Part shown: one piece after another, positions 1,291 through 56,886 of the stretch
Layout: each line of letters begins with the position of its first letter
Numbering within the stretch: the first letter of the stretch is position 1
Assembly (NCBI GenBank): GCA_021805985.1
Contig: JAJZDN010000011.1
Coordinates: 19,151 to 83,150 of the forward strand
Length of the DNA stretch: 64,000 nt
Reading direction: 5' to 3'
DNA from: Planctomycetota bacterium
GTDB lineage: Bacteria > Planctomycetota > Phycisphaerae > WQYP01
The notes under the pieces: model-generated
The model's database searches: none
Told to the model about the DNA's origin: nothing
Seen by the model: the letters and a program-made list of their open reading frames with translations, nothing else
Position numbers and translations under genes: made by a program

Positions 1291-1433
1291 TCGAAAATCC
1301 TTTCGTCGTAGTAACATTGCCGTACCGCAGGCATCTTGCCCGCATGGTGGACGCGAGGGGGGCAGGCGGCACGCCTGCGTTTCAGTTAACTCCTGCAACC
1401 TAATAAAAGGTGTCAGACACCTTTTATCGGTAT

Positions 1434-1465
1434 TTCTAACTCCTAACTTCTAGCTCCTAACTCCT
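1434..1465. repeat. Heptamer tandem (TTCTAAC/TCCTAAC)n, copy E2
   Basis: TTCTAAC TCCTAAC TTCTAGC TCCTAAC TCCT, same unit as the tails at 190-220 and 7717-7761. Confidence 0.8.
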
Positions 1466-1565
1466 CCCCGCCACTCCTCGTTATAATCGATTTTCGGAAA
1501 GGTATAAATGGTGCCGGGTCATTAGCGCCCGGGCAGGCGATCCAGCGTATGAACGGGGACTAACG

Positions 1566-3185
1566 ATGATTCAATATTTTCGACTTCTTGGGGGTGTAAT
1601 TGTCGCTGCGGTATTGGTGGCGGGGGGTCTGGTCAACGCAGCCAACGCAACCAAACCGTTGGCACCCCCAGCGGATAACTCCATTGTATTAGCCACCCCC
1701 AGGATCGACGCACAGAAACATGAATTTACGATCCCAGCGGCTTTTTGGAATGAGCATCTCACAGATTGGTTGGATGTGGCATTATGCGGACGGCCCAGTA
1801 ATTTTCTTCATGAAACCGTGCTAAGTGTCCAAACCACGCGGCACATCCTTAAAACCGCATTTCTCCGCATTGGCTATCATTCGGCCACCAAGTGGTCACC
1901 GGACCTTAGCGATTTTGGTTTCATTCGCGGGCAGCCGGTGCTGATATTGGTGAAGTTCCGAAGCCCAGGCACTGGCAAGGAGCAGACCTTTCTTCTGGAT
2001 GAATTAATTGAATTCCGCGCCTGGCACATTTCCGTAGGGCCTTTCGGTTGGCTGTATCTGGGGACGCATAACCCGTACGGATCTGCGGTGCCGCAACCGC
2101 AGCCGCGGGCGGGGCAGCACGTTGATCCGGCGGTTATTCTGGCGGACGACCCGCAGGCGGCGATGCAGTTTCGCGGCATTCAACATGCCTCGCAAGCCCT
2201 GCTGGATTTTCCGCTTTGTTTTGATAACTGGATATTTCCTAATATCCGTTATCACCGTAATGTCGCGGTGCTTTCCATGAAGGTTTTCAACAGCAATGGG
2301 AAAGTGCCGGTGCAGTTGGTTGTTCGCCGGGTTTCGGAGGTGCAATATCTGCAGGCCGCGGAAAAATATTGGCACGATCCGGCGTTTGCAGCCTATATTC
2401 AGCAGCAGTTGCCGGTGGCAAAATATGTGGATGCGGCACGGCGAAAGTTGTGGCATGGGATTCACACAAAACATCTTTCATGGACGAATTGGCGGGTAGA
2501 ACGCTGTGTAGCGCAGTTGCAGTACGGATACGCGCAGCTTCAGGCGGCATGGGTGGCGTGGGATGTGGCCCATGCGCGATTCCGCGCCGCCAATAGTTTG
2601 TCAAAGGTGCAGGTGGCGGCGCAGGCAAAATTGTTTTTATCGCATCTGCAGCAGCTTGCGCAAAGCGATCATCAGCAATGGCTGGCGACGCAGGCATTTG
2701 ACCAATTGCGCCAACTTAAAAAATCGCACACGAAAGCGAATGCTGGGGCGATTCGGCGTTTGCAAGCGGCGGAATTGGCCGGCCGATCACAGGCGCTGCT
2801 GTATTCAAATAAGCAGGATTTGGAATTCTGGCAGCACAAAAAGCAGAACCTCAAACCCAATGATCCGCGAAAAATCTGGATACGCGATGTCAAGAGTCAA
2901 TGTGCCTTGGCCCAGGCTCAAAAAGCAATGGGGGAGGCAGGCTTGGCGTATGCGGCAGCGATGAAGGCCGGCGGGGCAGAGAAGGCACAGCACCAGTATC
3001 TTGCGGCGATTTTGCAGGTGTCTTTGGCCAAGGAAAAAGTGGCGTTGGTCAATGTGGATTTCCACGTTACCAATGATCAGGGCTTTGCCAGCGCCCGGCA
3101 TATGGCCGCGTTAAAAGCGCAAAAAGCGGCAATTGTCAAGCAAATTAAGCAGATTATCGCGCAGCTAAATAAGCTCAAGCGTTAG
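1566..3185 (+). CDS. Secreted hypothetical protein with YdjY-like N-terminal domain and helical C-terminal half
   Basis: 539-aa ORF with a signal peptide. LCGRPSNFLHETVL...AFLRIG...RGQPVLILV resembles YdjY-type domains. C-terminal half is Ala/Gln/Lys-rich. Confidence 0.6.
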   Translation: MIQYFRLLGGVIVAAVLVAGGLVNAANATKPLAPPADNSIVLATPRIDAQKHEFTIPAAFWNEHLTDWLDVALCGRPSNFLHETVLSVQTTRHILKTAFLRIGYHSATKWSPDLSDFGFIRGQPVLILVKFRSPGTGKEQTFLLDELIEFRAWHISVGPFGWLYLGTHNPYGSAVPQPQPRAGQHVDPAVILADDPQAAMQFRGIQHASQALLDFPLCFDNWIFPNIRYHRNVAVLSMKVFNSNGKVPVQLVVRRVSEVQYLQAAEKYWHDPAFAAYIQQQLPVAKYVDAARRKLWHGIHTKHLSWTNWRVERCVAQLQYGYAQLQAAWVAWDVAHARFRAANSLSKVQVAAQAKLFLSHLQQLAQSDHQQWLATQAFDQLRQLKKSHTKANAGAIRRLQAAELAGRSQALLYSNKQDLEFWQHKKQNLKPNDPRKIWIRDVKSQCALAQAQKAMGEAGLAYAAAMKAGGAEKAQHQYLAAILQVSLAKEKVALVNVDFHVTNDQGFASARHMAALKAQKAAIVKQIKQIIAQLNKLKR

Positions 3186-3202
3186 CGTCGCCCGTCAAGG
3201 CG

Positions 3203-3285
3203 TTGAAATTTGAAATTTGAAATTTCGCATTCACCCGCGCCAGCGCTTCCGTGTCCCTGTCCCCCGTAACCCGTCCCCCGTAACC
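3203..3285. repeat. Heptamer-tailed element, copy E5
   Basis: (TTGAAAT)x3 at 3203-3223, core GCGCCAGCGCTTCC at 3237-3250, then two GTCCCCCGTAACC copies. Lies between convergent genes. Confidence 0.7.
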
Positions 3286-4610
3286 TACACCCGTATATGC
3301 CCATTGCCCGTGACAATAAATTTATACGTGCATAAATCTGCGGCGCCCATGGGGCCGCGGGCATGGAGTTTATCCGTGCTGATGCCGATTTCTGCGCCTA
3401 AACCATATTCAAATCCATCCGCCCAGCGGGTGGATGCATTGACCATGACACTGGCGGAGTCCACGTTCTGGATGAATTTATTGGCCGCGGCAATATCGCC
3501 GGTAACAATGGCATCGGTGTGTTGTGAACCGTATTGCGTGATATGGGCAATGGCTTCATCAATGGAATTTACCTGCTTGATGGCCACAATCAAATCCAGA
3601 TATTCGGCTCCCCAGTCTGATTCCACCGCCAGTTTGGCGTTTTGCAAAAGCCCCTGGCTGCGGGCATCGGCACGCATTTCCACTTTGGCTTCGCGAAATT
3701 TGGCAGCCAGACGCGGTAGAATGCGTGCGGAAATATCTTTATGAACAAGAATACATTCCGCGGTGTTGCACACAGCGCAGCCATCGACTTTAGCGCTTAC
3801 TGCGATCGCCACAGCCATGTCAGCATCTGCATATTTATCAATATAGATGTGACAGACGCCTTTATAATGTTTAATAACCGGAATGGTGGCTTGATCCACC
3901 ACCGCACGAATCAGCGATTCGCCGCCACGGGGAATCGCCAGGTCCACCAAGCCTTCCGCGGTCACCAGCACGCCCACGGCCGCTCGGTCGGCTGTGGCGA
4001 TCAACTGTACGGCATCCGGGTTTACCTGCGCGGCCACCAGCGATTCACGGATAATTTTGGCAATCGCCGTATTGCTGTGCAAAGATTCCTTACCGCCGCG
4101 CAGGATGCAGGCATTGCCGCTTTTCAGACACAGGGCCGCCGCATCGCTGGTGACATTGGGCCGGCTTTCATAAATAATGGCAATAACGCCAATGGGAACG
4201 CGGCGTTTTTCAATGCGCAGTCCATTAGGACGGTCATACGCTTCCATGGTTTGGCCGACGGGATCCGTTTGGCCCGCGATTTCACGGACGCTGGCGGCCA
4301 TGGCTTCGAGTTTCTTTTCAGATAAAGTCAGCCGGGAAATCATGGGCAACGCCAGATTGCTGTTTTTGGCCTCTCGCAGGTCGATCACATTGGCCGCCAG
4401 GACTTCGGCTTTGTGGGCAATAAGGCCATCGGCAATGCGGAGCAGAGCTGCGTTGCGAACATTCCCGCTCAACGTGGCGAGTTGGCGTGCCGCCTGCCGC
4501 GCCTGCCGGGCCATGTGCATTACTTCCTGAGTAACATCAGCCGAATCGACCATGGGCTTATTGGCCGACTGATTTTCAGCATTCCGTTCTGTGGCACTTT
4601 CCATCATCAT
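3285..4610 (-). CDS. proA: Gamma-glutamyl phosphate reductase
   Basis: VPIGVIAIIYESRPNVT, CLKSGNACILRGGKE, VDLAIPRGG, CNTAE, VNASTRWADG, EIGISTDKLHARGPMG. Exact start uncertain. Confidence 0.96.
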   Translation of the reverse strand: MMMESATERNAENQSANKPMVDSADVTQEVMHMARQARQAARQLATLSGNVRNAALLRIADGLIAHKAEVLAANVIDLREAKNSNLALPMISRLTLSEKKLEAMAASVREIAGQTDPVGQTMEAYDRPNGLRIEKRRVPIGVIAIIYESRPNVTSDAAALCLKSGNACILRGGKESLHSNTAIAKIIRESLVAAQVNPDAVQLIATADRAAVGVLVTAEGLVDLAIPRGGESLIRAVVDQATIPVIKHYKGVCHIYIDKYADADMAVAIAVSAKVDGCAVCNTAECILVHKDISARILPRLAAKFREAKVEMRADARSQGLLQNAKLAVESDWGAEYLDLIVAIKQVNSIDEAIAHITQYGSQHTDAIVTGDIAAANKFIQNVDSASVMVNASTRWADGFEYGLGAEIGISTDKLHARGPMGAADLCTYKFIVTGNGHIRV

Positions 4611-13972: not shown

Positions 13973-14083
13973 AGCGCATTTCCCAAAGCTTATCCAACCA
14001 ACATTATAGCAGCGCCCAGGACAGTTGCAGCAGGGGATGGGTTGAGGTTACAGGGGACAGATTACAGAGGCATGTGCCACAAA

Positions 14084-14104
14084 GCCGCCGGCTATGCCGG
14101 CGGT
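14084..14104. repeat. REP-like palindrome, copy 1
   Basis: GCCGCCGGC-TAT-GCCGGCGGT. Near-identical copies at 26944 and 41128. Confidence 0.75.
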
Positions 14105-14197
14105 GGAACCTGCTGGAAATATCCCGTAACCGATAATCTGATCCGGCCGTATGCTGCGATGTGAGACTGCCTGATTCAAGGCCACATTGAAAATGGA

Positions 14198-26892: not shown

Positions 26893-26943
26893 GAACGGGT
26901 CCGAAACAACTTCCCCAAAACCCGGCGCGTGGTCTCTCACAAA

Positions 26944-26964
26944 GCCGCCGGCTCCGCCGGCGGT
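26944..26964. repeat. REP-like palindrome, copy 2
   Basis: GCCGCCGGC-TCC-GCCGGCGGT between convergent ROK and fumC genes. Confidence 0.75.
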
Positions 26965-27055
26965 GCCGCTTGAGAGTGCAGCGCAAATCGGGAAATTATT
27001 TTGGTGTTGTTCCTTAATTGCTACGGATCTGCCCCAAAGGATGGCCCCTGATGCC

Positions 27056-30587: not shown

Positions 30588-30867
30588 AGGAGCCTGTCCG
30601 AGTAATCGCCGGGTTGCGACGGCGTGATTTTTGGCCACCATCAAGAAACGGCGACGATGGCGTACCTGACACGGATGGTACTCCGAGGAGCCGCGCCGCC
30701 GAGGGGGGCCAAAAAGCACACCGCCCCGCAGGGTGGGCCTGAAATGCCCCGCCTGCTTTGTTGTCGGATCTCGCAGACTCATTATTAAGAGTCGGCTCGA
30801 TCCTCCGTCGCGCATACGGGACATTTCAGACCCATCGCAATCCCGGCCATTACTCGGACAGGCTCCT
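30588..30867. mobile_element. MITE (non-autonomous IS derivative), copy 1, 280 bp
   Basis: Perfect 19-bp TIRs AGGAGCCTGTCCGAGTAAT / ATTACTCGGACAGGCTCCT. No transposase. Homologous inverted copy at 56608-56886. Confidence 0.9.
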
Positions 30868-30936
30868 GGCGGACGTTTCCGCCCAAACTTCGCAGTGTAC
30901 GGCTCCTGCAGTGATTCATCAACAATTAACGACGAT

Positions 30937-30966
30937 TTGCCACAATCAGGCGGTTGGGGCTATAAT
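30937..30966 (+). promoter_or_regulatory. sigma70-type promoter of tRNA-Met/rpmE
   Basis: TTGCCA-N18-TATAAT, 16 nt before the tRNA. Confidence 0.7.
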
Positions 30967-30982
30967 GCGGGGCTTGAAATCC

Positions 30983-31055
30983 GGCGGCGTAGCTCAGTTG
31001 GTAGAGCGCGGGATTCATAAGCCCAAGGTCTCCGGTTCGAATCCGGACGCCGCTA
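30983..31055 (+). tRNA. tRNA with CAT anticodon (elongator Met most likely; Ile2 not excluded)
   Basis: Cloverleaf: GGCGGCG/CGCCGCT acceptor, GCTC/GAGC D stem, TTCATAA loop, TCCGG-TTCGAAT-CCGGA T arm. CCA not encoded. Confidence 0.92.
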
Positions 31056-31146
31056 GTAACAGTGCCGCACGTGCGGAATGCGGCCAGACTGGCATTAATT
31101 TCGGCCCTATAATAGGGCCAGGTGAACAGATACGAAAGGATCCATC

Positions 31147-31377
31147 ATGAAAGAAAAAGTCCATCCCGATTACAATTTTGTCAAAGCCCATTGTGCTTGC
31201 GGCAATACCTTTGAAACCGGATCGGCATCCAAACGCATCGAAGTTGATATTTGCGGCGTTTGTCATCCGTTTTATACCGGTAAACAGAAATTTGTCGATA
31301 CGGCCGGACGCGTGGAACGCTTCCAGAAAAAGTATGCGAATTTTGATGTGAAAAAGGCCATGCAATCCACCAAGTAG
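31147..31377 (+). CDS. rpmE: 50S ribosomal protein L31 (Zn-binding type)
   Basis: [39 protein letters not shown]. Confidence 0.97.
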
Positions 31378-31397
31378 CATGGGCTTGCTAAAAACTT

Positions 31398-31440
31398 AAA
31401 ACGTCGCGTCCGCCGTAAGGCTGGGCGCGACGTTTTTATT
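31398..31440 (+). terminator. Rho-independent terminator after rpmE
   Basis: AAAACGTCGCG...CGCGACGTTTT stem followed by a T-rich tract. Confidence 0.8.
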
Positions 31441-31496
31441 TATGCAGAATTAATCACTTTTGCCCCCCAGAGTTTTAAATTTCAGGATTTGGCGAT

Positions 31497-32621
31497 ATGT
31501 CGGATACGGTGCGCACGAAAGGCCATGAATTGGTGCTACAAAAGCTCCACGGCATGAATGAGCGGCAGGGGGCCGTACAACGCGAATTAGAAGAAGCCAG
31601 TGCCACCACCAATTCTGCCAGGCTGGTGGAATTATCACGTGAGAACGGGCGGCTTGAAAAAGCTCTGGCGCTCTATCGCACGTATATCAAACTTCATGCC
31701 GATGCCATGGAAGCCCGGCAGATCGCGGATGATGCCGCTGAAGATCAGGACTTTCGTTATCTGGCCGCCACGCAGCTTTTGGAACTAAACCACCGCATAG
31801 ATCCTTTACTGGACCAGATGCTGGATGAATTTCTCGCCGGGCAACGCGGCGCTTCTGATTCCATGATGCTGGAAATCCGCGCAGGCACCGGGGGAGATGA
31901 AGCCGCCTTATTTGCCAGAGACCTCGCGGATATGTATCGGCGATTCAGTGAAAAAAACAACTGGCGCTTTGATGTGCTGGATTTTTCCCCCACCGAACAT
32001 GGCGGCTTTCGCGAATTCATCGCCAATGTCCGTGGCTCCGGCGTGGTTGAACTCCTGGCCATGGAGTCGGGCGGCCACCGTGTACAACGGGTGCCGGAAA
32101 CTGAAACGCAGGGCCGCGTCCACACCAGCGCTGCCACGGTGGCTGTCCTGCCGGAACCAGACGTGTCCGCCATTGAAATAAATCCTGCGGATGTTCGCGA
32201 GGATGTTTCGCGAGCGGGCGGGCCGGGCGGACAGAATGTCAATAAGGTTGAGTCCGCCGTGCAATTAACGCATTTGCCCACCGGTATTACCGTGCGTATG
32301 CGGGACGAACGCAGTCAACATAAAAACCGCGATAAAGCCTGGCGAATTTTACGATCACGCGTTTTTGAATTCTTTGATCAGCAGCGTCGTGCCCAGCGTT
32401 CCGACGCACGCCGTGAAATGATCGGCAGCGGTGATCGCAATGAACGCATCCGCACCTATAACTTTCCCCAGAACCGCCTGACCGACCACCGCCTGAACCG
32501 CAACTTCCCCCTGGAAAATATCGTCGCCGGCGAAATGTCCGATCTCCTGCTGGCCCTGCGTGATCTAGCCCGCGAACGCCAACTCGAATCCATGCTCGAT
32601 TCCACAACCCCCAGCCCATAG
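31497..32621 (+). CDS. prfA: Peptide chain release factor 1
   Basis: EIRAGTGGDEA, ESGGHRVQRVPETE (PxT motif), GGPGGQNVNK, ERIRTYNFPQNRLTDHR. Confidence 0.96.
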   Translation: MSDTVRTKGHELVLQKLHGMNERQGAVQRELEEASATTNSARLVELSRENGRLEKALALYRTYIKLHADAMEARQIADDAAEDQDFRYLAATQLLELNHRIDPLLDQMLDEFLAGQRGASDSMMLEIRAGTGGDEAALFARDLADMYRRFSEKNNWRFDVLDFSPTEHGGFREFIANVRGSGVVELLAMESGGHRVQRVPETETQGRVHTSAATVAVLPEPDVSAIEINPADVREDVSRAGGPGGQNVNKVESAVQLTHLPTGITVRMRDERSQHKNRDKAWRILRSRVFEFFDQQRRAQRSDARREMIGSGDRNERIRTYNFPQNRLTDHRLNRNFPLENIVAGEMSDLLLALRDLARERQLESMLDSTTPSP

Positions 32622-32649
32622 TCGCTGCTGTGCTTCCCCGCCCCGACGA

Positions 32650-33163
32650 CACCGGATAAATAATCCGGCGGTTGATCCAGTACCGCCAACCAACCACCGG
32701 AATATCACCACGGTGCCCTATGCCACGATACGCCCCGGGAGCACCGGATGATTAATCCGGTGGTTGATCCAGTGCCGCCAACCAACCACCGGGCTATCAC
32801 CACAGTGCTCTATGCCACGAGACGCCCCGGGAGCACCGGATGATAATCCGGTGGTTGATCCAATGCCGCCAACCAATCACCGGGTTATCACCACGGTGCT
32901 CAATGCCACGAGACGCCCCGGGAGCACCGGATGATAATCCGGTGGTTGACCCAGTGCCCAACCAACCACCGGGCTATCACCAAGGTGCCCTATGCCGCGC
33001 CCCGGGAGCACCGGATGATTAATCCGGTGGTTGATGCAGTAACACCAACCAACCCCCGGTTTATCACCACAGTGCCCTATGCCGCGACGCTCCCCGATAG
33101 CACCGGATGATTAATCCGGCGGTTGATCCAGTGCCACCAACCAACCCCCGGGCTATCACCACG
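32650..33163. repeat. Tandem array of six ~92-bp palindrome-rich units
   Basis: Units start at 32650, 32742, 32834, 32925, 33009 and 33101 (last one partial). Consensus CACCGGATGATTAATCCGGTGGTTGATCCAGTGCCGCCAACCAACCACCGGGCTATCACCACGGTGCCCTATGCCACGAGACGCCCCGGGAG. Confidence 0.95.
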
Positions 33164-33293
33164 ACTGCCTTCTGTCTGCCGCGTTAATCCCCGCAATATG
33201 CTCTTGCGGCATCCCGCTAGTTTTGACGGTGGCCTCTGATCTCTCTTTGTCGGTAGAAGCACACAAATCCTCATAACATGAACTAACCTCAGC

Positions 33294-33596
33294 CTATCGC
33301 ATATTGCCATGTGTCACCGCGTCTCGTCCATCTCTTAGTAACCAATTGATTCGGCCTGTCATAATTATAAAAATGGCAAAACATATTGCCGTTAGGATTG
33401 TCAACGGCCAAAAACCATATTTGCCAAGTAGATAGATTACAAGGGAGACGGAGTGCGCATTACGCGAACCATCAGCAATCGCGTAATATCCTATAGAATT
33501 GGAAAAGTAAAAATCTTGGCTGCTGCCAGGTATGCAAAGATTAAGAAAGATACTCGCGAATCCCACCCAAAACGATCCCATTTGCAGTACCGTCAT
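33294..33596 (-). CDS. Hypothetical small membrane protein
   Basis: 100-aa hydrophobic ORF with no family recognised. Confidence 0.35.
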   Translation of the reverse strand: MTVLQMGSFWVGFASIFLNLCIPGSSQDFYFSNSIGYYAIADGSRNAHSVSLVIYLLGKYGFWPLTILTAICFAIFIIMTGRINWLLRDGRDAVTHGNMR

Positions 33597-33752
33597 CCAT
33601 TTTGGGCAAAGCCGCCATTGGGGCGCAAACGAGCGAGAGCGTATATATTGAAGCCGTACACGGCGTCAGGGAAAACCTGTGACCTTGTAACCTGCATAGC
33701 TACATCGCCATCCCGGCGATACGCAACCAGACCCACCGCTGTCCCGCAAGGC

Positions 33753-34100
33753 TTATTTGGCCGCACTTATCGCAGTGGTCTCCATGGCGAATGTTGCATG
33801 GACCGTATTGCCCGCGAACGCCACGGATTTAGTCCCTGATGCCGCCGGTACTAGCGCGGCGGGGGGGTGAATCAGTGGCGGACTAATTTGGGGCGGGGCG
33901 GACATAACCCAGTTACACAACGTCATTATAATAAGCAGCAATACCAGAATATAGCCGGGAATAATGAAGACTGTCGCAAGCATCCGGATAAGACCGGGAC
34001 TTGCTAATTTCTCCCACGCTTCAGGATCCAGTGTTTTCCTGCCTTTTCGGGCCTTGGGAAAAGAATCAGACCAATCCATTTTGAAGGGAATCTGTAGCAT
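33753..34100 (-). CDS. Hypothetical single-TM protein
   Basis: 115-aa ORF with AAGGAG RBS 8 nt before the ATG and one hydrophobic segment. Confidence 0.45.
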   Translation of the reverse strand: MLQIPFKMDWSDSFPKARKGRKTLDPEAWEKLASPGLIRMLATVFIIPGYILVLLLIIMTLCNWVMSAPPQISPPLIHPPAALVPAASGTKSVAFAGNTVHATFAMETTAISAAK

Positions 34101-34602
34101 CGCTGGTACTCCTTATGAAAGCTTACCGATGCCTGGCCTCCGTCCCACCTGAAAATTCGGCCGCAACATACGGTTGCCGCCACACACATGGATGTGTAGA
34201 TGCAAATGCTGTGCCAAAATATTGTCCGTGCCGATATTGTTTGCCAGAAGGGACTCCTGAAGTGACAGGTTGACTACTTCTTGACCTGGGACGGCAATAA
34301 TCCTATAGCAATGACGAATAAATGCTTAATTAGCGGGTGGTATCGCGTGCAGAATTAATTTACCACATAAAAAACGCTGCCCACAGATTCAACGTGCTTC
34401 CATTTTCTGTGCATAAAACAGGCAGATGGTGAACTTAAGTACCCCGCATTATCGCCTGATCTCCTGGCACGCAGGCAAGCGCTTCAACCGCCCAATAGTT
34501 GCAAGTCCGCAAGTATTGCTGCGCAGGTTCCCGCTTTTCTTCTACGATTTTCTTCCACCATGGCCCCGCCTGCCGGTTAATACGGTAGAATCTGCAGGTG
34601 CT

Positions 34603-35721
34603 ATGATTGATCAGACCAGTGAGTTAACCCCTTTGCATCTTGCCCTGTGGCTGGATTGGCGCCAACTTCCGCAGGAGGCGGGGTTTATTTATTCCCTGGC
34701 GGTGGCCGCAAAAGCCGAAGGATGCCGTATTTCCATCATCGCGCCAGCGGGTGCCGATTTAAGTTTTCTGCCTGACCTTGGCACACCGATTTTATTAGTG
34801 CCCAATCCATCTGGGCCGCTTTGGTTGGAATCAATCCGCCGGCCATCCATGGACATTATTAATCAGTTAAAAAAAGCGATGGTCGATGTGGTACTGCAAT
34901 TCGCACCGCGCACCGCGCACAATTCACTGCAATTGCGCTTGGCACAGGAATTTCCCGTGGTGCGGTGGATTTGGGATTCTTCGGATTTGAGACCCAATGC
35001 CGGGCAGATTATTGACGGGGCACAGTTGGTGGTAGTCTCGCAGCATGCCAAGGATCAATGTGGCAAAGAACGCACCGACGTATCTTTAATTCACCCGGGT
35101 GTTTTAGTACACGATTCTCTTCCGCCGCAATTCGGTGCAGCCGACCGGCCCGCACTTATGGTCTGTTTGGATCTGATTTCAGATTATCAGTTATTCGCCG
35201 ACCTGCTTGACGCCTGCCGACGGCTAATGGACGAAAAAGCCGATTTTCTTCTGGTTCTCTGCGATGCCGGAAAAGAGGCGCACAACGTATGGAAACTCTC
35301 CAATGATTTAGGATTGCTTGATCGCATCAGCTTTATTCCCTATCGCTATGATATTGATCCATTGCTCACCCAGGTGGATGTTTATATCCAGCTCACAGCG
35401 GCCTCGCGGTACAACTACACCACGCTTCGGGCGATGGCTCGGCGAATTCCAGTTGTTGCCAATCCGGGTGTTAATGACGAGTTCTGCATCGATGGACAAA
35501 CATGTCATGTATTTGACCGCAGCCGACCCGACATGCTTTCTGCTGCGCTGGCAGACATGTTGGCGCATCCGGCGGCGGGCCGTGAAATGGCCCAGCGCGC
35601 CGCCACCCATTTACAGCGGCATTACAGCATGAGCAACGCAGTGCAGCGCCTGATCGCCCTGTGCCGCCAAGCCGCAGGCATTCCGCTGACCCTGCCCAAA
35701 GCACCGCCGTCGATTGCATAG
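34603..35721 (+). CDS. Glycosyltransferase, GT-B/GT4-like
   Basis: LIHPGV, LLDRISFI, TLRAMARRIPVVA, LSAALADMLAHP. Start moved to MIDQ (34603). Confidence 0.75.
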   Translation: MIDQTSELTPLHLALWLDWRQLPQEAGFIYSLAVAAKAEGCRISIIAPAGADLSFLPDLGTPILLVPNPSGPLWLESIRRPSMDIINQLKKAMVDVVLQFAPRTAHNSLQLRLAQEFPVVRWIWDSSDLRPNAGQIIDGAQLVVVSQHAKDQCGKERTDVSLIHPGVLVHDSLPPQFGAADRPALMVCLDLISDYQLFADLLDACRRLMDEKADFLLVLCDAGKEAHNVWKLSNDLGLLDRISFIPYRYDIDPLLTQVDVYIQLTAASRYNYTTLRAMARRIPVVANPGVNDEFCIDGQTCHVFDRSRPDMLSAALADMLAHPAAGREMAQRAATHLQRHYSMSNAVQRLIALCRQAAGIPLTLPKAPPSIA

Positions 35722-41053: not shown

Positions 41054-41127
41054 TGCATGGCACCGCCGGCCCAGGAACACTTTGCAAACACCCCCCCCCG
41101 AAAACTTAAGTTACCGTCCGTCACATA

Positions 41128-41148
41128 GCCGCCGGCTCTGCCGGTGGT
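41128..41148. repeat. REP-like palindrome, copy 3
   Basis: GCCGCCGGC-TCT-GCCGGTGGT between convergent genes. Confidence 0.7.
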
Positions 41149-41179
41149 AGAGCCTCGGGTCGCAGCGCAGTTTGGCAAA

Positions 41180-56607: not shown

Positions 56608-56886
56608 AGGAGCCTGTCCGAGTAATGGCCGGGATTGCGATGGGTCTGAAATGTCCCGTATGCGCGGCGGAGGATCGAGCCGACTCTTAATGATGAGTCT
56701 GCGAGATACGACAACAAAGCAGGCGGGGCATTTCAGGCCCACCCGCAGGGCGGCGTGCTTTTTGGCTCCCCTCTGCGGCGCGGCTCCTCGGAGTACCATC
56801 CGTGTCAGGTACGCCATCGTCGCCGCTGCTTGATGGGAGCCAAAAATCACGCCGTCGCAACCCGGCGATTACCCGGACAGGCTCCT
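56608..56886. mobile_element. MITE, copy 2 (inverted relative to copy 1), 279 bp
   Basis: TIRs AGGAGCCTGTCCGAGTAAT / ATTACCCGGACAGGCTCCT. Internal sequence is the near-identical reverse complement of 30588-30867. Confidence 0.9.

Follow-up and report, generated by a model that had tools for sequence, protein, structure and literature searches.

A probable BIME-2-like tandem amplification of a dispersed palindromic repeat behind prfA in an uncultured Phycisphaerae genus

We analysed a stretch of 64,000 nucleotides from a Planctomycetota bacterium of the Phycisphaerae (the window; assembly GCA_021805985.1, contig JAJZDN010000011.1, positions 19,151 to 83,150), in which prfA, the gene encoding peptide chain release factor 1 (RF1), is followed by a tandem array of hairpin-forming units (32650-33163). 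The array is probably a tandem amplification of a lineage-specific, non-coding and palindromic dispersed repeat, similar to the BIME-2 form of the bacterial interspersed mosaic elements (BIMEs) and to clusters of REPINs, the hairpin-forming doublets of repetitive extragenic palindromic (REP) sequences. It is real but ordinary in kind: the repeat is hairpin-forming 'junk' that is spread over the genomes of one uncultured Phycisphaerae genus, most likely a selfish or near-neutral family of REP doublets, whose local amplification behind prfA was followed by truncation through a rearrangement. Genome architecture of the REP/BIME/REPIN type is thereby extended to an uncultured genus of the Planctomycetota, and the family receives a consensus of clear anatomy.

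The array and its palindromic unit

According to Tandem Repeats Finder (TRF) the stretch 32650-33163 is one tandem array with a period of 92, 5.7 copies, 86% matches and a score of 734. The array starts 28 nt past the prfA stop codon and can be split at CACCGGAT into five complete units and a truncated sixth (Table 1), which bears out the six-unit array of ~92 bp that an initial annotation had described behind prfA, down to the exact unit lengths. Lengths of 92 or 91 bp are not multiples of three, every reading frame is broken, and the open reading frames (ORFs) that cross the array are all ≤60 aa, in agreement with the non-coding character proposed for it earlier. Each period is made up of a core of ~71 nt and a spacer of ~21 nt (TATGCCACGAGACGCCCCGG). 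The pairwise identity among the units is 78-93% and the array is therefore not recent.

The initial annotation had drawn three interlocking, mutually exclusive hairpins within each unit. The three inverted repeats are indeed present (H1, CACCGGAT/ATCCGGTG; H2, CCGGTGGTTG/CAACCACCGG; H3, GGTGCYC/GAGCACC), but they are sub-helices of a single ~71-nt imperfect palindrome, GAGCACCG-GATGATAATCCGGTGGTTG-(16-nt loop)-CAACCACCGGGTTATCACC-A-CGGTGCTC, and not three independent devices. H2 is the inner portion of the long stem and H3 the outer portion; H3, which had been placed across the unit junction, encloses the core in the single copies elsewhere and can equally bridge two units in arrays. H1 is a local hairpin within the left arm (GAG-CACCGGAT-loop-ATCCGGTG-GTTG), and the right arm, which is inverted, slightly different and separated from the left one by a 16-nt linker, contains a weaker counterpart (a local stem of 5 bp). 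The supposed mutual exclusion thus comes down to the two folds that are open to any inverted doublet of small palindromes.

The consensus obtained from an alignment of 118 distinct copies, (A)GAGCACCGGATGATAATCCGGTGGTTG ATCCAGTGCCGCCAAC CAACCACCGGGTTATCACC A CGGTGCTC(TATGACGC), folds into a single hairpin of ~27 pairs that is interrupted by one bulge and by two positions fixed for a non-Watson-Crick combination; its free energy is -45.6 kcal/mol for the + strand and -50.5 for the - strand. Shuffled versions of the array fold far less well than the array itself (z = -6.3 for the + strand and -10.3 for the - strand), and none of 100 shuffles matched it. Its + strand is C-rich, with a GC skew of about -0.14 to -0.27, and the G-rich complement gains G-U pairs because of this. 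The 'clover' fold, in which H1 forms, costs ~17 kcal/mol (RNA) or ~8 kcal/mol (DNA) relative to the long hairpin. The stem columns of the alignment are mostly conserved at ~90% or more, and the central loop and spacer at ~50-80%, so that the description of conserved stems with changes in loops and linkers holds at the level of the family. The long hairpin (26 pairs) is paired in 89% of the cells in 66 distinct copies, as in an inverted REP doublet, and the left arm (CACCGGAT-N4/5-ATCCGGTG) in 96%, as in a short imperfect palindrome of the REP type. The basic element is a REP doublet, able to fold either as one hairpin of 27 bp or as a clover with each arm on its own; the same 'hairpin' and 'clover' alternatives were drawn for REPINs by Bertels and Rainey (PMC3116915).

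This architecture is matched by known systems. A BIME-2 is defined by a REP, an inverted REP (iREP), a short linker between them, a second, flanking linker and multiple tandem copies, the number of which varies in E. coli by locus and strain (PMC3333891). The array reads, correspondingly, arm, 16-nt linker, inverted arm and ~21-nt spacer, 5.7 times over, and other arrays of the family hold 2-24 units. The E. coli BIME-2 of the REPtron/TnpA-REP system (PMC3333891, PMC2817692) shares with it the palindromic arms in alternating orientation and the two alternating linkers, arranged head to tail, and shares with the family the extragenic location, the high copy number and a count of units that differs from locus to locus and from one strain or species to another; CCGGAT...ATCCGG is found in the stem of the E. 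coli REP as in that of the arm described here, and many single copies carry GTAG 5' of one arm. The BIME-like array that had been suggested is thus supported in its architecture (REP-like inverted arms, alternating linkers, a high-copy extragenic family and a species-variable number). The REPINs of Pseudomonas fluorescens SBW25 (PMC3116915) are likewise REP doublets with a hairpin of ~71 nt and both folds, their tandem clusters include flanking sequence and their singlets resemble decayed doublets; large REP clusters, in which dimers are repeated in tandem along with the DNA beside them, have also been described as general (PMC3733652). The largest cluster in SBW25 has 4 REPINs, against 5.7 units here and ~24 in a sister species.

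The differences concern the host, a planctomycete of the Phycisphaerae, the GTAG tag, which stands 2 nt from the hairpin foot and is confined to ~40% of the single copies with none in array units, the stems and the enzymatic partner. H1 is a perfect stem of 8 bp, whereas the E. coli RayT needs a stem mismatch, and the pair of arms forms a much longer and near-perfect hairpin of 27 bp. In contrast to E. coli, and to SBW25, where each REPIN group adjoins its own single-copy gene for a REP-associated tyrosine transposase (RAYT), no repeat-flanked cognate RAYT gene was found in the 35 loci that were inspected.

Various other classes of repeats and elements were considered and set aside: i) a cyanobacterial origin (the HIP1 palindrome), as GCGATCGC is not enriched (186 copies); ii) a CRISPR array, as the 'spacers' of ~21 nt are themselves repeated and mutually similar; iii) integron attC sites, as cassette ORFs are not present; and iv) terminators, as the hairpins are not followed by a T-run.

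A dispersed family within one genus

The genome-wide search for the unit, which had been proposed as a check, retrieved 66 BLAST matches in the source genome (4.68 Mb, 197 contigs) and 120 nhmmer hits with a profile of the six units; when the self-antisense hits that a palindrome yields were dropped, ~116 copies at 76 loci remained, on both strands. The sequence AATCCGGTGGTTGATC has 80 copies and is the most frequent 16-mer of the genome apart from heptamer arrays. By crude gene calls, nearly all 76 loci are intergenic and the ORFs that overlap them are mostly short and lie inside the repeats; the family is both extragenic and high-copy. The fall-back explanation of the initial annotation was a neutral minisatellite that is unique to the prfA locus and was made by chance duplication. 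The divergence among the units and the truncation of the array would suit it, but it is refuted by the ~116 copies genome-wide and the presence of the family across the whole genus, and it retains practically no probability.

Of the 9 other species of the genus, 8 carry the family, and a diverged form is present in one other genus; elsewhere among the 40 relatives that were checked it was absent or came up as a single weak match (3 genera). When 185,579 species genomes were scanned for the exact pattern, matches were confined to metagenome-assembled genomes (MAGs) of the Planctomycetota/Phycisphaerae, to which the source genome, an uncultured member of the Phycisphaerales, also belongs; a search of viral contigs gave no match to the repeat. 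The family predates the species splits and is restricted to one genus, apart from the diverged copies in one other. All 10 genomes of the genus are fragmented MAGs and their contigs often end at these repeats, which account for many spurious ORFs and contig breaks in these assemblies.

Tandem amplification is not particular to prfA. Arrays of 2-4 units occur in the source genome on contigs C33, C74, C190, C116, C167, C105, C191 and C101, and C3 carries 8 cores at a period of ~155 bp. The closest relative (G009) has an array of 4.0 x 91 bp with 95% identity on its contig C198, and in G004 (contig C145; L182, ~1299-3513) a single intergenic region carries ~2.2 kb of 89-90-bp units, roughly 24 copies. 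The number of units differs between species at further orthologous sites as well (e.g. 2 versus 1). A second array, of 2.8 units, is present on the same G004 contig (5788-6037), ~2.3 kb from the large one.

The gene contexts of the repeat were tallied by hand from crude gene calls (the longest non-overlapping ORFs); 17 were convergent, 7 divergent and 40 tandem. In 28 of the 40 tandem ones the repeat is closer to the 3' end of the upstream gene, and its orientation relative to the genes is unbiased (20 versus 20). Within 2 kb of the 76 loci no recurrent transposase-like neighbour was found; the recurrent neighbours were pseudo-ORFs derived from the repeat and a prepilin-type family. Half-units (model positions 1-54 or 34-71) recur beside paralogous prepilin-type genes, with the N-terminal methylation motif, on C133 and C114.

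The variable flank behind prfA

The array opens an insert of 1,146 bp that also contains a patch of low GC content (Table 1), as had been supposed when it was described as the left edge of a small accessory patch. The insert was delimited by BLASTN synteny with the sister species G006, which aligns to 30868-32603, resumes at 33750 and has 16 bp in its place. The last five codons of prfA (TTPSP) and its stop, from 32604 on, lie within the insert, which displaced the original stop, and the RF1 of the source genome and of G009 has the five extra C-terminal residues TTPSP. Of the 9 other genomes of the genus, 8 yielded prfA. In G006, G003, G005, G004 and G002 it ends with ...LDS-stop and is directly followed by the convergent gene for a small membrane protein. 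G009, the closest relative (prfA 96% identical), shares the C-terminal extension of RF1; its prfA is followed by one unit, then the right end of a larger element (T, see below) and then a different set of genes. The copy-number comparison that had been proposed between strains thus gave, between species at this site, 5.7 units in the source genome, one in G009 and none in five other species. Because the relatives carry no insert or different genes there, the 3' flank of prfA is a variable hotspot with the repeat at its left edge. Knowledge of the repeat is of use chiefly for annotation: it flags the edges of variable regions, of which this site is one, and counts of its copies could help to tell strains apart.

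The units u1-u5 and the single G009 unit have ATGCC in common at a position where the family consensus reads ATGAC. This locus-specific variant, shared with the G009 unit, speaks for duplication in place and not for serial insertion, and thus points to an origin of the six units by in-place duplication of the core together with its spacer of ~21 nt.

Table 1. Coordinates of the array behind prfA, its surroundings and related elements (window positions, unless a contig or locus is named)
Feature	Coordinates	Strand	Remarks
prfA (peptide chain release factor 1)	31497..32621	+	PCRF and RF-1 domains
Lineage-specific insert	32604..33749	.	1,146 bp; holds array and low-GC patch; BLASTN synteny with G006
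Spacer-like remnant (..GTGCTTCCCCGCCCCGACGA)	32622..32649	+	looks like the 3' end of a further unit, judged by a by-eye match to the internal spacers (..GTGCTCTATGCCACGAGACGCCCCGGGAG)
Unit 1	32650..32741	+	92 bp; core hairpin and spacer; one mismatch each in H1 and H2 (ATCCGGCG)
Unit 2	32742..32833	+	92 bp; nearest to TRF/array consensus; 98% to BLAST query unit, 95% to family consensus over first 64 columns
Unit 3	32834..32924	+	91 bp
Unit 4	32925..33008	+	84 bp; deletions in central loop and spacer
Unit 5	33009..33100	+	92 bp; highest similarity (88%) to the single orthologous unit of G009
Unit 6	33101..33163	+	63 bp; cut at position 63, where the low-GC patch starts
Low-GC patch	33164..33749	.	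586 bp; 42-48% GC; absent from sister species
Small membrane-protein gene, conserved	33753..34100	-	directly after prfA in sister species without insert
T element without core (two copies)	30588-30867; 56608-56886		~280 bp; nested internal hairpins
Third palindromic element, in core loops	C5:110452-110694; C42:14965-15381; C116:33710-33995; L098:5984-6208		

The low-GC patch contains an ORF for a hydrophobic product of 100 aa (33294-33596, - strand) that has no Pfam match and may encode a small accessory membrane protein or may not be a gene; two terminator-like hairpins are found on the same strand at 33408-33375. The genes that follow the repeat in G009 (L120, contig C211, 985-3047, minus strand) encode a YhcG/DUF1016 PDDEXK nuclease and a DUF1156 methyltransferase-like protein, a combination that resembles a defence island, and are preceded by an apparent N-terminal fragment of a helicase.

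Mobilisation, function and competing explanations

If the array is a BIME-2-like amplification, the family would first have spread as single-stranded hairpin DNA that was handled in trans by a divergent transposase-like protein of the Y1 (HUH) type encoded in the genome. Tandem copies could have arisen through Y1 cleavage and strand transfer, since strand transfer by the E. coli RayT (TnpA-REP) in vitro 'can assemble tandem BIME copies' (PMC3333891), or simply because units slipped or crossed over unequally. A rearrangement that imported the 586-bp low-GC patch later removed the right end of the array. The array is probably co-transcribed as the 3' untranslated region (UTR) of prfA, where it could, at most, behave like a REP by hindering 3' exonucleases or by partial termination, and could form a recombination-prone edge of the variable region.

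Several results weigh against this account, in the first place those on the enzymatic partner. Candidates were collected with PF01797 (Y1_Tnp) in the genome and the genus, their flanks were read, k-mers were counted and tblastn was run against 71 repeat-bearing loci of other MAGs. The unit flanks none of the 8 Y1_Tnp loci of the source genome and none of the 35 loci that were inspected (~1.5 kb of flank) in the 10 genomes of the genus, and the RAYT/TnpA gene flanked by the same hairpin, which the initial annotation proposed to look for, was thus not found among them. The Y1-like proteins of the source genome score ≤54 bits with the NCBIfam model for the REP-associated tyrosine transposase, which has a cut-off of 80, and those genes in the source genome that have flanking repeats carry different ones. 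In addition, the tag GTAG, which E. coli RayT requires (PMC3333891), precedes the left arm by 2 nt in 25 of 62 single copies (~40%) and in 0 of 23 array units; at the right arm ATAG was found in 15 and GTAG in 4 of the 62 single copies, and GTAG may just belong to the T element around the core. No clean pair was recovered when filled and empty sites were compared for 62 repeat clusters in the 71 loci (the intergenic DNA being 57-85% identical), and mobility is for this reason deduced from the distribution of the family.

Membership of a RAYT-REP system is accordingly not established: the architecture matches and the partner test failed, in fragmented MAGs with contigs that often break at the repeats. 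Amplification by an HUH enzyme, as had been suggested, is plausible only by analogy with TnpA-REP strand transfer, and did not find its counterpart in a unit-flanked Y1_Tnp locus. The tblastn search with the Y1-like proteins returned a single short gene remnant, next to a core-bearing T element in L052, which was judged coincidental.

It is also conceivable, at quite a low probability, that the family is a REPIN-like replicator without a dedicated flanking RAYT, in which the hairpins rather than a sequence tag are acted on. This reading fits because of the nested insertions at hairpin apices, of which the innermost is polymorphic, the arrays of ~24 units and the repeats that coincide with breakpoints of regions that are variable or hold defence genes. 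If true, it would point to a structure-specific process of copying or recombination (hairpin-tip targeting or fold-back synthesis), which would also shuffle blocks of accessory genes in the Phycisphaerae.

The larger context of the cores suggests another vehicle, which could have carried them instead and thereby also counts against the preferred account. Many single cores lie inside the T element, which resembles a transposable element of the miniature inverted-repeat type (MITE), has terminal inverted repeats (TIRs) of ~19-35 bp that start with AGGAGCCTGTCCGAGTAAT, and is, with one or more units inside, the commonest context of the 92-bp repeat elsewhere in the genome. On such a view, the unit might be the amplifiable inner module of a 280-bp T element that is moved by a cut-and-paste (DDE) transposase, with slippage changing the number of modules, and the prfA array would be a T element stripped of both ends. 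The pneumococcal BOX elements, in which boxB occurs in variable number in tandem between boxA and boxC (A-Bn-C; PMC3049150), provide the precedent and are the nearest analogue for a T-(core)n-T form: they are likewise modular, non-autonomous and stem-loop forming, their length varies between strains with an internal tandem module, and their mobilising enzyme is unknown. They differ in that there is no sequence relationship, in that boxB measures 45 bp and is not an inverted doublet, and in that arrays are found here without outer modules as well.

We consider this MITE-like origin unlikely, although several findings are in line with it: T elements without a core (~280 bp) and with one core and spacer (~370 bp) differ by ~92 bp; a T element with three internal units exists (C33:102580-102896); T-like flanks are present on most single cores; and the G009 orthologue at prfA is a single unit with the right end of T behind it. 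An autonomous element with the TIRs of T was not found, however, and pairs of T ends at a distance of 1-3 kb, as expected of a parent insertion sequence with the same ends, do not occur in the genome. The one clear empty site, that in G006 for the T copy at 30588-30867 (between an aldo/keto reductase gene and tRNA-Met, 30983-31055), lacks a clean target duplication, and the junction between the short and the core-bearing T forms is not that of a simple insertion. Arrays and cores without any T end exist in the window, on C3, C116 and C167 and in G004, and internally the unit is built as a REP doublet, partial GTAG tag included. The core itself ends in a terminal inverted repeat of 8-10 bp.

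The nesting extends one level further, since a third palindromic element (~145-200 bp, rich in heptamer repeats, among them GGTTACA, AGGAGTT and GGTTCCA) is placed exactly in the apical loop of some cores (Table 1); one orthologous site has it in another species but not in the source genome. REP dimers within longer palindromes have been described before, alongside TIRYT/TIR repeat families (PMC3733652), where divergent Y1 genes flanked by their own repeats likewise occur in the same genome, but the three levels found here (TIR element, core and heptamer-bearing palindrome in the core loop) go deeper than those examples. Three-deep palindromes together with the lack of a recognisable cognate RAYT have some mild interest for the formation of REPIN and BIME clusters; on present evidence both lie within known biology.

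Selection for a function was considered as well. The unit could be a structured RNA (a stabiliser or terminator in the prfA 3'-UTR or a precursor of small RNAs) or a binding array for a gyrase-, IHF- or NAP-like (nucleoid-associated) protein, its copy number tuning the effect. The folds are very stable, the preference for the 3' ends of upstream genes noted above would suit such a role, and REP and BIME elements have side-roles of this kind in E. coli (PMC3333891). Moreover, shared orthologous cores are 84-98% identical between species, compared with 57-85% for 240 bp of flank. This difference, which also tells against near-neutrality, could reflect selection or gene conversion, and is also compatible with a loss of alignment in the flanks. 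The unit is evidently not needed behind prfA, because it is absent there in 5 of the 7 informative sister species, and the balanced orientation relative to transcription does not suggest a transcribed function either. A terminator scan found none in the array and no U-tract after the hairpins, and an Rfam search of window positions 31000-35000 (E ≤ 1) gave sub-threshold hits to microRNA hairpins, with 26-27 bits against gathering scores of 48-94, and no family match.

For covariation, the named structures were evaluated on the 66 distinct copies, including the subfamily of the other genus. Covariation in the long hairpin does not exceed that of column shuffles; the changes in its stem are one-sided and, leaving out a few wobble positions that are nearly fixed, divide about evenly into G-T and A-C, so that neither RNA strand is favoured. 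In the arm hairpins the signal exceeds all 500 shuffles, but 8 of the 11 cells with a double change go back to one inherited swap from G-C to C-G, which keeps H1, in the subfamily of the other genus (CACCGCAT...ATGCGGTG), and in the G004 subfamily GAGCACC has become GAACACC/GCACACC in both arms. Such single inherited events would be no less expected if both arms are read by one protein, and they give modest support to a recognition of the arms as hairpins or by one and the same protein. This covariation falls short of evidence for an RNA function. The repeated structured RNA that had been put forward thus finds no support in Rfam, in orientation or in the long hairpin, and the small amount of covariation in the arm hairpins does not change this; overall we regard a functional element under selection as very improbable.

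The Y1-like genes of the source genome have repeats of their own. A divergent Y1/RAYT-like gene on C58 (598-1203) is flanked by an unrelated REP-like palindrome, AAAGCCGCCGGCTCTGCCGGCGGTGG (AAGCCGCCGGCTCTGCCGGCGGTGG), of which ~45 copies occur genome-wide; the flanks of those on C137 and C6 contain repeats of the GTGAAACGGGGACGTGAC type, which form an inverted pair around the gene on C137, and the C172 gene has hairpins of its own. Copies of the second REP-like palindrome AAGCCGCCGGCTCTGCCGGCGGTGG are also present in the window, at 14082-14106, 26942-26966 and 41126-41150.

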